IMG/VR virus record: IMGVR_UViG_3300031133_000426
DNA length: 64,000 nucleotides
Source of the DNA: a virus
Direction: 5' to 3' (one strand)
Shown piece by piece: positions 6,679 to 60,006 of this stretch. Numbering within the stretch: position 1 is the stretch's first letter; each line of letters starts with the position of its first letter. Made by a program: the position numbers and the translations under genes. The notes beneath the pieces are model-generated. The model was not told the DNA's origin. It saw only the letters and a list, made by a program, of their open reading frames with translations, and ran no database searches.

Positions 6679-7821
6679 ATGTCCAATTATCAAACCCAGC
6701 TTTTTTCTGACCTCATGAACCTGTTGGTGACAAATCCGGGTTCTTTCAAATACAAAGACTTTCCAGCCGATGAAGGTGCTGTATTTCGTATTTTTAATTA
6801 CGATCTTCCTAAATACACTGAATTTCAACAGCCCGGTGCCATGGATTGCCGTGGGGCCATGTTTTATATCAAAGGTGAAGTCGTCAAACTGGTAGCTCTT
6901 CCTATGAAGAAGTTTTTTTCTTTGGGTGAAACGCCAGAAACGCTAAAAATTGACCATACCAAAGCCAAATTTGCCTATATGAAGGAAGATGGTTCTTTGC
7001 TAACAAGCTATATCTCCCCTGTGGATGATAGTTTTAAATTCAAAAGCAAAAACATGCCAACTTATCTTGATTATGGTTTGGTTGAAAAATCTATCTCGCC
7101 TGAACTTTTGGCTGAATTTGAAAACCTGACTCGATCTGGTTTTTCTATTGATGTTGAATTGACCACTCCACATAACCGCGTCTTTGTGGAATATGAAAAC
7201 CATTCTGTTCACGTTCTCAAAGTTCGCAGCCTTTCTTCTGGTGACTATCTGGATATTCGTTCTCCATCCTTTGCGAGTCAGTATCCAGTTATTGCTCAAC
7301 ATCTTGTCAAGCAAATTACCATTTCAGATATCAATCTTGATGGTAAATCTGCAGATGGTAAACTGATTGAAGGTTATGTTGTTGAAATGGACGATAACCA
7401 TTCAATGTATAAGGTCAAGACGATTCCTTACCTCAAAATGTCGGCAGTGGTCAATATTCAAGATCGCAGTAAAGAACGGGAAAATATCTACAAGGCTACC
7501 CTGCATGAAATCCTTGATGAAATTCGTTCTCTCTATCATTATCGCAATCATAGTCCCAACTTCCCTATCGTCGAAATTCTGGCACGTTTGGATGAAGTTG
7601 AAGAATACGCCAAAAAAAGCTACCACTACATGGTAAAAACGGTTGACCAGTTCTATACCGAAAACAAAGATCTCAGTCAGGGTGATTATGCTCGGAAAGC
7701 AAAAGCAGAAGTGCCACTTCTTCTACCTGTCCTGATGGAACTTTACGCTGGTCGCCCAGTTGATTACAAAGAAGCTGCAATCAAGATCTATGCAAAACGC
7801 AAAGTCGATATTCCTGCTTAA
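6679..7821 (+). CDS. rnlA: RNA ligase 1 (T4 RnlA type)
   Basis: Motif I KEDGSL, III ELTTPHNR, IV IEGYVV, V YKVK; upstream DCRGAMF and KKFFSLGE. Confidence 0.92.
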   Translation: MSNYQTQLFSDLMNLLVTNPGSFKYKDFPADEGAVFRIFNYDLPKYTEFQQPGAMDCRGAMFYIKGEVVKLVALPMKKFFSLGETPETLKIDHTKAKFAYMKEDGSLLTSYISPVDDSFKFKSKNMPTYLDYGLVEKSISPELLAEFENLTRSGFSIDVELTTPHNRVFVEYENHSVHVLKVRSLSSGDYLDIRSPSFASQYPVIAQHLVKQITISDINLDGKSADGKLIEGYVVEMDDNHSMYKVKTIPYLKMSAVVNIQDRSKERENIYKATLHEILDEIRSLYHYRNHSPNFPIVEILARLDEVEEYAKKSYHYMVKTVDQFYTENKDLSQGDYARKAKAEVPLLLPVLMELYAGRPVDYKEAAIKIYAKRKVDIPA

Positions 7822-42107: not shown

Positions 42108-42184
42108 CCGTGCGTAGCTCAGTTGGATAGAGCATCCGCCTTCTAAGCGGATGGTCGCTGGTTCGAATCCAGCCGCATGGACCA
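42108..42184 (+). tRNA. tRNA-Arg (TCT)
   Basis: Cloverleaf; anticodon arm TCCGC-CTTCTAA-GCGGA; GGTTCGAATCC; encoded CCA. Confidence 0.97.
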
Positions 42185-42189
42185 AATTT

Positions 42190-42274
42190 GCCCGGTTGGT
42201 GAAATCGGTAGACACAGAAGACTTAAAATCTTCCGGCGAAGGTCGTGCCAGTTCGAGTCTGGCACCGGGCACCA
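42190..42274 (+). tRNA. tRNA-Leu (TAA), copy 1
   Basis: GAAGA-CTTAAAA-TCTTC; long variable arm; CCA. Confidence 0.97.
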
Positions 42275-42759: not shown

Positions 42760-42844
42760 GCCCGGTTGGTGAAATCGGTAGACACAGAAGACTTAAAATC
42801 TTCCGACGAAGGTCATGCCAGTTCGAGTCTGGCACCGGGCACCA
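42760..42844 (+). tRNA. tRNA-Leu (TAA), copy 2
   Basis: Differs from copy 1 only in the variable arm. Confidence 0.97.
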
Positions 42845-42923
42845 AATTAAAAAAGATGAAAAAAAGAGTTGCAAATTTTGGTGAAAAGGCTTAATATAGA
42901 GCCTTCTTAAATAGAAACGGAAA

Positions 42924-43063
42924 GAGGATTAACAGAAATTTTCGTAGGTTGGCATCCTACGAATTCAAGCAAATATCCTAAGACCTTTGGTAGACCAATA
43001 AATCCAAAGCAGGGGTTTCAATAAAAAGATTGGAAACCGCTTGAAATAGATTGCTAGGTATTT
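42924..43063 (+). ncRNA. unidentified structured ncRNA, copy 1
   Basis: Follows promoter TTGCAA-17-TAATAT (42869); homolog at 59597 with compensatory substitutions; no ORF. Confidence 0.8.
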
Positions 43064-43135
43064 AAATTTTAATTAGAGACTATATTAATTAGAGGATACC
43101 GGATGATTTAGTGCGTCCTAAATCATCCACCCAAA

Positions 43136-43212
43136 GGGACTTTAGCTCAGTTGGTTAGAGCAACCGACTCATAATCGGCAGGTCACAGGTTCAAGTCCTG
43201 TAAGTCCCACCA
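43136..43212 (+). tRNA. tRNA with CAT anticodon, probably Ile2 (lysidine), copy 1
   Basis: GACTCATAATC anticodon region as in bacterial Ile2; lacks initiator features; elongator Met not excluded. Confidence 0.9.
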
Positions 43213-46832: not shown

Positions 46833-47023
46833 CCTAACATCAAGTTGATAGTAAAATTTATCGTTCCAAGCTCAACCCAGTGTTGGGCTTTTTTGTGTCT
46901 TTAATTTAATGTTTTGTACCTATTGAAAATATTATGGATAATAAAAAAAATTTAACAACAATACTATTTTTTATTTTGTTTAGATATGATACCATTATAC
47001 AAATTATATTGGGAATTAAAAAA

Positions 47024-47578
47024 ATGAATAAAGCGGTAACGGAAAAAAGCAAATACATCTCCTACGTCTTGCGTCATGGTGCAAAAGAAGTTGGAATCGA
47101 CATTGATAGCCAAGGATGGGTTCTAGTCGCGGATTTAATGGATGTAGCGGCACGTAATAAAAAATCTTTCACTCGTGAAGAACTTGACTTCATTGTCGAA
47201 AACAACAACAAAAAACGTTTCGTATTCTCATCGAATGGCCTTTCTATTCGTGCTAGCCAAGGTCATTCCAGTGACAACGTTTCCATCACCTTTGAACCTA
47301 AAACACCGCCAGAATCGCTGTATCATGGAACCACCGTAAGCTTCGTAGATGCGATTTTGGCAGAAGGCTTGAAGAAAATGAGCCGTCACCATGTCCACTT
47401 GTCTCAGAGCCTTGAAACTGCTATCAGCGTTGGTAGTCGTCATGGGAAGGTTGCTATGCTCAAAATCAACTCACGTCAAATGCAGCGTGATGGGTTTAGC
47501 TTTTATTGTTCAGCTAACAACGTGTGGCTGACTGATAACGTTCCTTCTCGTTACATTGAACGTGTTGATTTAAAGTAA
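47024..47578 (+). CDS. kptA: RNA 2'-phosphotransferase Tpt1/KptA
   Basis: SKYISYVLRH, KKRF, IRASQGHS, LYHGT, RHHVHLS, NNVWLT. Confidence 0.95.
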   Translation: MNKAVTEKSKYISYVLRHGAKEVGIDIDSQGWVLVADLMDVAARNKKSFTREELDFIVENNNKKRFVFSSNGLSIRASQGHSSDNVSITFEPKTPPESLYHGTTVSFVDAILAEGLKKMSRHHVHLSQSLETAISVGSRHGKVAMLKINSRQMQRDGFSFYCSANNVWLTDNVPSRYIERVDLK

Positions 47579-59341: not shown

Positions 59342-59426
59342 GCCCATGTGGTGAAATTGGTAGACGCGGTGGATTCAAAATCCTCTGTCGAAAGACGTGC
59401 CGGTTCGAGTCCGGCCTTGGGCACCA
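59342..59426 (+). tRNA. tRNA-Leu (CAA)
   Basis: Anticodon loop TTCAAAA; long variable arm; CCA; one mismatch each in acceptor and anticodon stems. Confidence 0.9.
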
Positions 59427-59438
59427 ATTTAGAGTTTC

Positions 59439-59523
59439 GCCCGGTTGGTGAAATCGGTAGACACAGAAGACTTAAAATCTTCCGACGAAGGTCGTGCCAG
59501 TTCGAGTCTGGCACCGGGCACCA
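59439..59523 (+). tRNA. tRNA-Leu (TAA), copy 3
   Basis: 1 nt different from each of the other copies. Confidence 0.97.
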
Positions 59524-59596
59524 GATTTAAAAAAGATTGAAAAACAGTTGTACAACTTAAGAGAATGCCTTAAAATGGCTCCACATTAACGAAATA

Positions 59597-59730
59597 GAGG
59601 ATAACAGATTTTTAGTAGGTTGGCATCCTACTGATTCAATCATCACCTAAGACCTTTGGTGGACCACTAAATCCAAAGTAGGGACTTTAACAAAGTATCA
59701 AAGTCGCTTGAAATAGATTGCTAGGTATTT
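59597..59730 (+). ncRNA. unidentified structured ncRNA, copy 2
   Basis: Promoter TTGTAC-17-TAAAAT (59548); covaries with 42924 copy. Confidence 0.8.
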
Positions 59731-59929
59731 CTAAATTAACTAATATAAACTATTAAATGTAATGATTTAGATGAATAGTAACACATTTTTAAATTAATCA
59801 CTAAGCTAATTTAATGTAAGTGCCAGAGGTGAACTACCAATGAAGCGTTAATAATCATCAAACTTTAATTAAGCTTATTTAAATTGATTTCATAGATGGT
59901 TTCGGTATCTTCCTTAACCATCAAACTAT

Positions 59930-60006
59930 GGGACTTTAGCTCAGTTGGTTAGAGCAACCGACTCATAATCGGCAGGTCGCAGGTTCAAGTCCTGCAAGTC
60001 CCACCA
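59930..60006 (+). tRNA. tRNA CAT, probably Ile2, copy 2
   Basis: Same as 43136 except compensatory T-stem change ACAGG/CCTGT to GCAGG/CCTGC. Confidence 0.9.

Follow-up and report, generated by a model that had tools for sequence, protein, structure and literature searches.

The window (the whole 64-kb stretch of phage DNA analysed here) carries seven plus-strand tRNA genes, confirmed by ARAGORN and by the Rfam tRNA model. The sequence-only reading had described a duplicated layout running from tRNA-Leu(TAA) to tRNA(CAT), and reading both regions together with ARAGORN confirmed that it is present twice, at 42760-43212 and at 59439-60006, each time in the order tRNA-Leu(TAA), promoter-like site, conserved block, hairpin, tRNA(CAT). 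The features of the two regions are listed below, where the blocks are called copy A and copy B, and R1 and R2 are the first and second covariance models.

42760..42844, + strand: tRNA-Leu(TAA), 5' neighbour of copy A (ARAGORN, Rfam tRNA)
42869..42897, + strand: promoter-like TTGCAA-17 nt-TAATAT before copy A (8/12 to consensus, under the scan threshold)
42920..43067, + strand: copy A, full covariance-model match (R1 165.5 bits, R2 118.8 bits)
43101..43128, + strand: 11-bp hairpin, 8 bases 5' of tRNA(CAT), with no T-run after it (read from the sequence)
43136..43212, + strand: tRNA(CAT) 3' of copy A (ARAGORN, type Met; Rfam tRNA)
59439..59523, + strand: tRNA-Leu(TAA), 5' neighbour of copy B (ARAGORN, Rfam tRNA)
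59549..59576, + strand: promoter-like TGTACA-16 nt-TAAAAT before copy B (9/12 to consensus)
59592..59734, + strand: copy B, full covariance-model match (R1 167.5 bits, R2 124.4 bits)
59895..59922, + strand: hairpin GATGGTT/AACCATC, seven bases 5' of the copy B tRNA(CAT) (read from the sequence)
59930..60006, + strand: tRNA(CAT) 3' of copy B (ARAGORN, Rfam tRNA)

Pairwise alignment over 42924-43063 gave 78% identity between the two blocks (109/140 columns), compared with 54% over the 79 nt on their 5' side and a 3' spacer that was mostly unalignable, in agreement with the earlier claim that the block is conserved while its flanks have diverged. The flanking tRNAs were identical at 84/85 and 75/77 positions. 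Two copies had been delimited at 42924-43063 and 59597-59730; both are there, but the covariance-model matches are wider (42920-43067 and 59592-59734). The sigma70 promoters that had been proposed exist as sites, with 9/12 matching positions at copy B, although the copy A site reaches only 8/12 and falls below the threshold. Both promoter-like hexamers of each copy lie in columns conserved among four sequences, the element begins ~20-45 nt past the site, and promoter-like matches in the window are not commoner than in shuffled sequence. ARAGORN types the tRNA(CAT) at 43136..43212 as Met, and we take it to be tRNA-Ile2-like. The hairpin stands 7-8 nt before this tRNA in both copies and shows compensating changes between them. 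No conserved reading frame was found in the block, the longest stop-free stretch in copy B being 21 codons.

The RNA read from the plus strand has the overall fold of an H-type pseudoknot, in which P1 is stem 1 and a helix between the P1 loop and the 3' tail is stem 2. The strand joining these stems holds a three-way junction of P2, P3 and P4, with P2 closing P3 and P4 and only 4-6 unpaired bases at the junction. The elements of the fold are as follows.

42941..42963, + strand: copy A P1, 8 bp, 42941-42948 with 42956-42963, 7-nt loop 42949-42955
42951-42954, + strand: copy A pseudoknot loop bases GGCA, partner in the 3' tail
42964..43045, + strand: copy A three-way-junction domain, P2 42964-42970 with 43039-43045
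42977-42979 with 43011-43013, + strand: copy A lower P3; AGAC internal loop 42981-42984
42985-42990 with 43004-43009, + strand: copy A upper P3; 13-nt loop 42991-43003
43014-43019 with 43033-43038, + strand: copy A P4
43046..43063, + strand: copy A 3' tail, in which 43052-43055 (TGCT) pairs with the P1 loop and is followed by AGGTATTT
59612-59619 with 59627-59634, + strand: copy B P1
59635-59641 with 59706-59712, + strand: copy B P2
59654-59659 with 59673-59678, + strand: copy B upper P3
59683-59688 with 59700-59705, + strand: copy B P4
59622-59625 with 59719-59722, + strand: copy B pseudoknot

RNAalifold on four sequences returned the same helices that had been proposed by eye, with two corrections. 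P2, proposed as TTCAA/TTGAA, is a true helix of 7 bp (TTCAAGC/GCTTGAA) rather than 5, and the proposed P3 (CTTTGG/CCAAAG) stands with an additional 3-bp lower stem beneath the AGAC internal loop. The double substitutions claimed in P4 are all present (43015/43037 G-C to A-T, 43016/43036 T-A to C-G, 43019/43033 C-G to T-A), as is the compensatory change claimed in P1 (42943/42961 C-G to A-T), where an A-to-G change at 42962 also leaves a wobble pair. Folding z-scores were -2.1 for copy A and -0.5 for copy B; because the copy B value is unremarkable alone, the two copies in the window do not by themselves settle the case. Interpreting the AGAC loop as a K-turn or a UAA/GAN motif was rejected by eye since the P3 register does not fit, and no consistent complementarity was found between the tail after the pseudoknot and either the P3 loop or the 5' flank.

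Searches against Rfam 15 (4227 models) identified 7 tRNAs and no other family in the whole window at gathering threshold. Copy A searched at E up to 10 gave chance-level matches only, well below gathering, and the loci of seven relatives searched at E up to 1 gave nothing over any element, so the earlier reading, which could not match the RNA to tmRNA, SRP, RNase P, 6S or a known riboswitch, is borne out by Rfam 15 in every lineage. This covers riboswitches, small ribozymes, GOLLD, ROOL, YrlA, tmRNA, 6S and RNase P in all lineages, and the hammerhead, twister, twister-sister, pistol, hatchet and HDV-like consensus (window E<=10, relatives E<=1). Neither ARAGORN nor RF00005 found a tRNA-like cloverleaf in the element. 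No description of this RNA was found in the literature.

At E 1e-5 the block had no BLAST match among phages, and no close relative of the window was found among GenBank phages. A permissive search (E up to 10) returned a match of 35 nt, in a gap without annotation in SPN3US-like jumbo phages; the gap scored 47.7 bits with R1, and the match opened up the family. Further BLAST rounds and annotated regions led to Seoulvirus, with one member at L043:2186-2353, Machinavirus and the SA002/pEa_SNUABM_48 group. Model search of whole records found one copy in Erwinia phage Ea35-70 (Agricanvirus; 75.5 bits), a 15-bit match only in Cronobacter phage CR5, and no copy in phiKZ, Goslar or PCH45. Carriers searched as whole records have one copy each, and the window has two. 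R1 had been built from four near-identical sequences, and its alignment of the Seoulvirus 3' half, which matched the P4 extension to the window's tail, was wrong; we rejected it because Erwinia phage SNUABM_29 lacks this segment and because the alternative P2/P4 pairing covaries. R2 aligned the Seoulvirus copies correctly, scored all members at 65-144 bits and aligned them consistently. By model match the conserved unit measures 143-197 nt, with a core module of ~145-170 nt.

An 18-mer scan of metagenome contigs gave 19 loci, two of them real (L017 and L020) with the gene order of the window. Exact or gapped scans of IMG/VR with window-specific motifs found nothing, or one chance match in a coding region; these motifs were too strict, because the orthologues have GACAA where the scan required GACCA. 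A degenerate 46-nt motif of the P3-P4 core matched 9 IMG/VR contigs, all of them true members (9/9), and added L038, which comes from a 290-kb record (G001; CheckV 96% complete). The same motif had two matches among 185,579 prokaryote species (one genome each), both false and in gut MAGs, where they are due to chance, and no true copy was found there. With the RNA ligase of the window as an anchor, no relatives were found in IMG/VR and only homologues of ~30% identity among GenBank phages. DNA of the window occurs in phyllosphere and dairy metagenomes.

Base-pair statistics were computed on 19 aligned sequences from the AT-rich 290-kb phage lineage of the window, Seoulvirus (SPN3US), Machinavirus, Agricanvirus (Ea35-70) and SA002-like phages, giving 665 pair cells over 35 pairs. 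Of the 665 cells, 95.0% were canonical, compared with 28-44% when the 3' partners were slid by 1-3 columns; the nested helices were counted on model-fitted alignments, which favour them. Both sides had changed in 28/35 pairs, and the covariation score was 0.79 against 0.24 in shuffles, none of the 500 reaching 0.79. Covarying pairs made up 7/7 of P2, 6/6 of P4, 6/8 of P1 (97% of P1 cells paired) and 4/6 of upper P3.

The pseudoknot was left out of the covariance model and therefore forms an independent test. All of its cells were paired (100%), and 3 of its 4 pairs covary between P1 loop positions 3-6 and the tail. The loop and tail strands read GGCA:UGCU in the window, GACA:UGUC in L038, GAUG:CAUU in Seoulvirus and Machina-type Machinavirus, GAUA:UAUU in SA002-like phages, GGUA:UACU in ChrisDB-type Machinavirus and GAUC:GAUU in Ea35-70. 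The pairing of P1 loop with 3' tail that the sequence-only reading had put forward is thus correct, with covariation in independent lineages. The P1 loop had also been called invariant, which is true within the phage lineage of the window only; across the family the loop covaries with the tail. An anticodon-like role for an invariant P1 loop fails on the same observations, as the loop varies between lineages, and we rejected P1 as an anticodon-loop mimic because its loop sits in the pseudoknot.

A covariance model built from the two copies and their relatives, a check that had been suggested for the two copies, finds covarying homologues in other phages. The structured RNA claimed at this locus is read from the plus strand and shows compensatory changes across at least five phage lineages; compensatory pairs in independent lineages and above controls are what generally marks a structured RNA family. 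Because the pairs include G-U, the fold is strand-specific and belongs to RNA rather than to a DNA cruciform. These results indicate that the block is the gene for a compact folded non-coding RNA of ~145 nt and belongs to an RNA family absent from Rfam, which is well supported with the relatives retrieved.

Roughly 20 positions outside the helices do not vary even between distant lineages. Near-invariant unpaired bases comprise AGA in the P3 internal loop, UAA in the 13-nt P3 loop, AG after P3, A.AAA in the P4 loop and G at P1 loop position 3; two G-C pairs capping P1 are also invariant or nearly so. The A-rich P4 loop motif is ACAAAG in most relatives and AAUAAAAAG in copy A. Lineage-specific additions are a J2/3 hairpin in the Machina group and a P4 extension in all GC-rich lineages. 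Invariant unpaired junction and loop bases are equally typical of riboswitch aptamers and ribozymes, a point that weighs against taking them as a sign of protein binding in trans.

The element is usually found near tRNA genes, but its immediate neighbours differ among carriers. It lies between tRNA-Leu(TAA) and tRNA(CAT) in the window and in L038, and by model match begins 2-5 nt past tRNA-Tyr in SA002, pEa_SNUABM_48 and the IMG/VR genome G004. At the head of the tRNA island in Seoulvirus and Machinavirus, its tail abuts the ribosome-binding region of a conserved small ORF of 55-64 aa that starts 5-11 nt later, a spacing also seen in G002; the 145-170-nt core occurs without this ORF in three further lineages, including that of the window. 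In Ea35-70 it occupies a 920-nt gene-free gap 2 kb from the sole annotated tRNA, with an 11-bp hairpin and U-rich run ~50 nt on its 3' side, and in G003 no tRNA lies within 1.5 kb of it. The link to tRNA-Ile2 that had been drawn from the two copies therefore holds in the lineage of the window and breaks down in the relatives, where a tRNA-Tyr, a small ORF or a gene-free gap takes its place. The layout can also exist without the element: a second Leu(TAA)-CAT pair in G001 is spaced by 14 nt and lacks it, and a metatranscriptome contig of a relative has 83 nt instead of 285 between the two tRNAs, again without it. The element is a unit that moves between genomic contexts with variable neighbours. 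The meeting of its tail with the ribosome-binding region of the small ORF in Seoulvirus and Machinavirus fits cis action there, which speaks against a role in trans. Annotations sometimes fill its gap with small hypothetical proteins in error; ChrisDB gp8 is one case, and a CDS on the minus strand of EC001 is another.

Two phyllosphere metatranscriptomes contain contigs, 185 and 187 nt long, that match 42918-43102 and 42944-43130 without a difference and so span the element and the spacer towards tRNA(CAT); in one metatranscriptome the element contig had a depth of 5.9 against 2 for a neighbouring ORF; such contigs cannot show the start, end or strand of a transcript, and DNA may occur in RNA libraries. 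For the SPN3US copy, 71% of the sampled words were found in four RNA-Seq runs of one study. These contigs and words are hints of expression, and co-transcription of the element with tRNA(CAT) is plausible.

A multisubunit RNA polymerase and PhuZ are typical marks of jumbo phages that form a nucleus. A beta-like gene of such a polymerase is present in both G002 and G003, while PhuZ occurs in G003 and is annotated in Ea35-70; in G001, the relative of the window phage, neither was found. The window itself is rich in sigma-70-like promoters and small plus-strand ORFs and encodes a T4-type RNA ligase and a Tpt1/KptA gene. The full ORF sets of G001 and of the window were compared with those of four jumbo phages that have the RNA and three that lack it. 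The proteins in common with any carrier were of three kinds only: thymidine kinase, Tpt1 (with Ea35-70 only) and a 171-aa protein present in 4/4 carriers and 0/3 non-carriers, presence and absence being scored in nine sequence sets and the co-occurrence resting on eight genomes. The 171-aa protein has no Pfam or PDB match and groups with T4 gp30.3/NADAR-type proteins by feature similarity. Neither thymidine kinase nor this gp30.3/NADAR-like protein has an evident RNA role, and both were set aside as partners. No phage protein with an apparent RNA function was found travelling with the element in the nine sequence sets. Two unrelated jumbo-phage lineages thus carry the RNA with almost no proteins in common, and because the RNA is among the very few things they share, horizontal exchange and a target from common hosts are suggested. 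The carriers point to Erwinia, Salmonella, Escherichia, Proteus and probably a leaf-dwelling enterobacterium as the hosts held in common.

The closest known counterparts are likewise found in or near phage tRNA clusters. The T4 species 1 and 2 RNAs (rnaC and rnaD) are non-tRNA molecules of 119-139 nt, encoded in a tRNA cluster and annotated as small stable RNAs, and they are expected to be freed by the tRNA-processing machinery. Like them, the block is a non-tRNA gene on the same strand as the tRNAs of a phage cluster. Unlike them in detail, it shows no sequence or structural similarity (MAFFT; R1 and R2 had no match in the T4 tRNA region L021), and whereas rnaC ends in a T-arm-like tRNA segment, our RNA is a pseudoknot with a three-way junction and nothing tRNA-like. 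In E. coli, the 3' external transcribed spacer of the leuZ tRNA transcript sponges small RNAs. Such spacer RNAs are by-products of tRNA operon transcription freed by tRNA processing, but they are short and mostly unstructured and base-pair with Hfq, whereas the RNA described here is highly structured and its conserved single-stranded runs are very short. GOLLD (RF01998) and ROOL (RF03087) are structured phage RNAs, often near tRNA islands and sometimes directly 3' of a tRNA; both have pseudoknots, measure ~580 to >800 nt, form multimeric nanocages and occur in phages and prophages, and a protein partner of ROOL was not identified (bioRxiv 10.1101/2024.12.08.627333). The present RNA differs in being 4-6 times smaller, in lacking any RF01998 or RF03087 match and in having been found so far only in lytic jumbo phages of enterobacteria. 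We conclude that it represents a new RNA family of a known kind, the structured RNAs of phage tRNA islands.

The best explanation, to which we give a probability of roughly 45%, is that the block encodes a stable trans-acting RNA that is made from a tRNA operon and would bind a host factor. Transcription of the plus strand would start at the promoter-like site of the element or continue into it from tRNA-Leu; RNase P, together with further enzymes of tRNA processing, would excise the neighbouring tRNAs and so free the RNA; and the freed RNA would persist as a stable small RNA acting in trans on part of the host machinery, most plausibly on a protein, for instance a defence factor that targets RNA or a factor of RNA processing. 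Several points favour a stable trans RNA: the neighbours change from carrier to carrier, the Ea35-70 copy has a terminator-like end, no phage protein with an apparent RNA function was found to accompany the element, and the T4 species 1 and 2 RNAs, GOLLD and ROOL offer an analogy. A host target is proposed because two unrelated lineages share the RNA and no such phage protein was found alongside it. It is conceivable, though we rate this somewhat unlikely, that the RNA is a portable counter-defence or takeover device swapped among unrelated jumbo phages of the same enterobacterial hosts, whether as an enzyme decoy or as a new class of small ribozyme or aptamer acting on tRNA-operon transcripts. 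In its decoy form, such a device would trap a host RNA-targeting immune or processing enzyme.

A cis-acting leader is an unlikely alternative: a riboswitch-like aptamer or protein-binding operator whose pseudoknot, forming in response to a ligand or protein, would control translation or processing directly downstream. In Seoulvirus and Machinavirus it would act on the small ORF. In the window it would act on the precursor of tRNA(CAT), and the element, given its distance from the promoter-like site (~20-45 nt), would form the 5' leader of the tRNA(CAT) transcript. Such a leader fits the conserved 55-64 aa ORF, whose start lies 5-11 nt past the element in Seoulvirus, Machinavirus and G002, as well as the highly conserved unpaired nucleotides, which resemble those of aptamers, and the purine-rich Shine-Dalgarno-like stretch (AGGUGAG in Machina-type phages) that directly follows the 3' strand of the pseudoknot. 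However, this overlap is confined to Seoulvirus and Machinavirus, and the class of downstream feature is inconsistent (a tRNA, a small ORF or none), with nothing for 200-700 nt in SA002-like phages and Ea35-70. No terminator or anti-terminator follows the element in the window, and none of the known riboswitch models matches. It is quite improbable that the RNA is catalytic, by self-cleavage or otherwise, and helps to cut long tRNA-operon transcripts into units. A ribozyme would suit the compact fold, with its pseudoknot, its several helices and the invariant nucleotides of its junction and loops, and also the place of the element in polycistronic tRNA transcripts that need processing, and sub-threshold hammerhead-like matches in the islands of relatives (L026:3380-3432 and L059:91-162) suggest that small ribozymes may be used there. 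Against this, no Rfam ribozyme matched at E up to 10 in the window or up to 1 in the relatives, a junction with 4-6 unpaired bases is unlike the hammerhead core, and the metatranscriptome contigs run unbroken across the element, although uncleaved molecules also assemble in this way.

The same fold could act as a structural cap that shields a transcript or a released RNA from host RNases without any partner-specific role, which we consider very improbable. The element lies at or near the predicted 5' end of the transcript in the window and on the 3' side of tRNA-Tyr in SA002-like phages, and junction-wrapped pseudoknots block exonucleases in other viruses (flavivirus xrRNA); however, enterobacteria are not known to have a 5'-3' exonuclease of the type that such folds block. 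A simple hairpin would suffice for 5' stabilisation, yet ~20 unpaired positions do not vary between distant lineages, which points to a specific ligand or partner. An explanation at the level of DNA is all but excluded. It would require either a DNA signal, namely an internal promoter TTGAAA-16/18-TAAATT over the 3' part of the block, with a 9/12 promoter-like match at 43041-43068 and 59708-59737, or a recent duplication that has yet to diverge, the whole tRNA-spacer-tRNA unit being a segmental duplication. Promoter-like matches are no commoner than in shuffled sequence, and the GC-rich relatives lack the site. Recent duplication is contradicted by flanks at 54% or less beside a block at 78%, and by stem differences that are compensatory. 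A DNA signal is also contradicted by the covariation, which takes in a long-range pseudoknot as well as G-U pairs and holds for 19 sequences of at least five lineages.

RNAs with such covariation and such invariant unpaired bases almost always act specifically, and most structured phage RNAs, including the T4 species 1 and 2 RNAs, GOLLD and ROOL, are still unexplained after years or decades. The covarying long-range pseudoknot and the stand-alone core are now also seen in a phage type unrelated to SPN3US, and the covariance model gives annotators a means to fill a gap that recurs in jumbo-phage genomes and looks 'empty'. The RNA is small enough to probe, crystallise and mutate, its pseudoknot can be broken and restored, and it is present in culturable model phages (SPN3US, Ea35-70 and Machina-like Erwinia phages). 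Because its sharing among carriers suggests a host-directed role, it offers a tractable way into the non-tRNA content of phage tRNA islands.

The structured RNA element, which lies between tRNA-Leu(TAA) and tRNA(CAT), is not a constant part of this tRNA pair. In the metatranscriptome sample X14, the region equivalent to window 42777-43212 runs from tRNA-Leu(TAA) to tRNA(CAT) with a spacing of 83 nt and without the element. At L038:9836-10010, a locus of the IMG/VR relative G001, the same two tRNAs are separated by only 14 nt, again without it. Since relatives thus possess the Leu(TAA)-CAT pair without the element, the element acts as an optional insert. Ahead of tRNA(CAT) stands a separate hairpin:

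window 43101-43128 and 59895-59922, plus strand, hairpin 7-8 nt upstream of each tRNA(CAT)

Compensating changes preserve its pairing in both copies and no T-run follows it; this hairpin may be a processing signal of the tRNA precursor. Along the minus strand of the window, the element's own 5' hairpin (P1, 42941-42963) and the T-rich run after it receive a terminator-like score, which is probably incidental because no converging gene lies nearby.

Around the element in relatives' loci, Rfam returned four matches, all close to the element and all below threshold: two YrlA-like (Y-RNA-like, tRNA-shaped; L054:876-939, 44.5 bits; L026:72-189, 32.3 bits) and two hammerhead type III (L026:3380-3432, 30.5 bits; L059:91-162, 26.7 bits). 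The element site is left unannotated in most relatives, and some GenBank records place small hypothetical proteins across it (ChrisDB gp8 and gp9, L025:1925-2369; an EC001 CDS on the minus strand, L022:2410-2592). In the cases of ChrisDB gp8 and the EC001 CDS, an RNA gene has probably been mis-called as protein-coding; ChrisDB gp9 is the counterpart of a conserved small ORF:

L022:2618-2785, with equivalents in L023-L025, L029, L034, L035 and L057, ORF of 55-64 aa with the motif W.F.H.W.TG.G.SR.G..YR ... DR.AP

This ORF starts 5-11 nt 3' of the element in Seoulvirus, Machinavirus and the further carrier G002, and is missing from the window lineage, SA002-like phages and Ea35-70.

The orthologous metagenome contigs Ga0308157_10000028 and Ga0308158_10000001 (L017 and L020) measure 677,834 and 1,859,102 bp, against 290,157 bp for the related IMG/VR record of this phage type (completeness rating 96%). 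Contigs of such length could be concatemers, products of mis-assembly or something odder.

One protein showed a distribution specific to carriers of the RNA:

L069:14167-14682, minus strand, gp30.3/NADAR-like protein of 171 aa in G001 (phrog_652)

It has no Pfam match. In a small sample of phages, homologues were found in 4/4 RNA-bearing jumbo phages and in none of phiKZ, Goslar and PCH45 (0/3), and no other protein was distributed in this way.

An 18-kb part of the window holds three tRNA-Leu(TAA) genes of identical class, two tRNA(CAT), one tRNA-Arg(TCT) and one tRNA-Leu(CAA). The relevant features are:

window 42108-42274, 42760-42844 and 59342-59523, plus strand, tRNA gene sites of the redundant set
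window 6679-7821, RNA-repair gene Rnl1
window 46934-47578, RNA-repair gene Tpt1/KptA

The window tRNAs show an unusual redundancy for A-ending codons, adjoining the RNA-repair genes Rnl1 and Tpt1/KptA.
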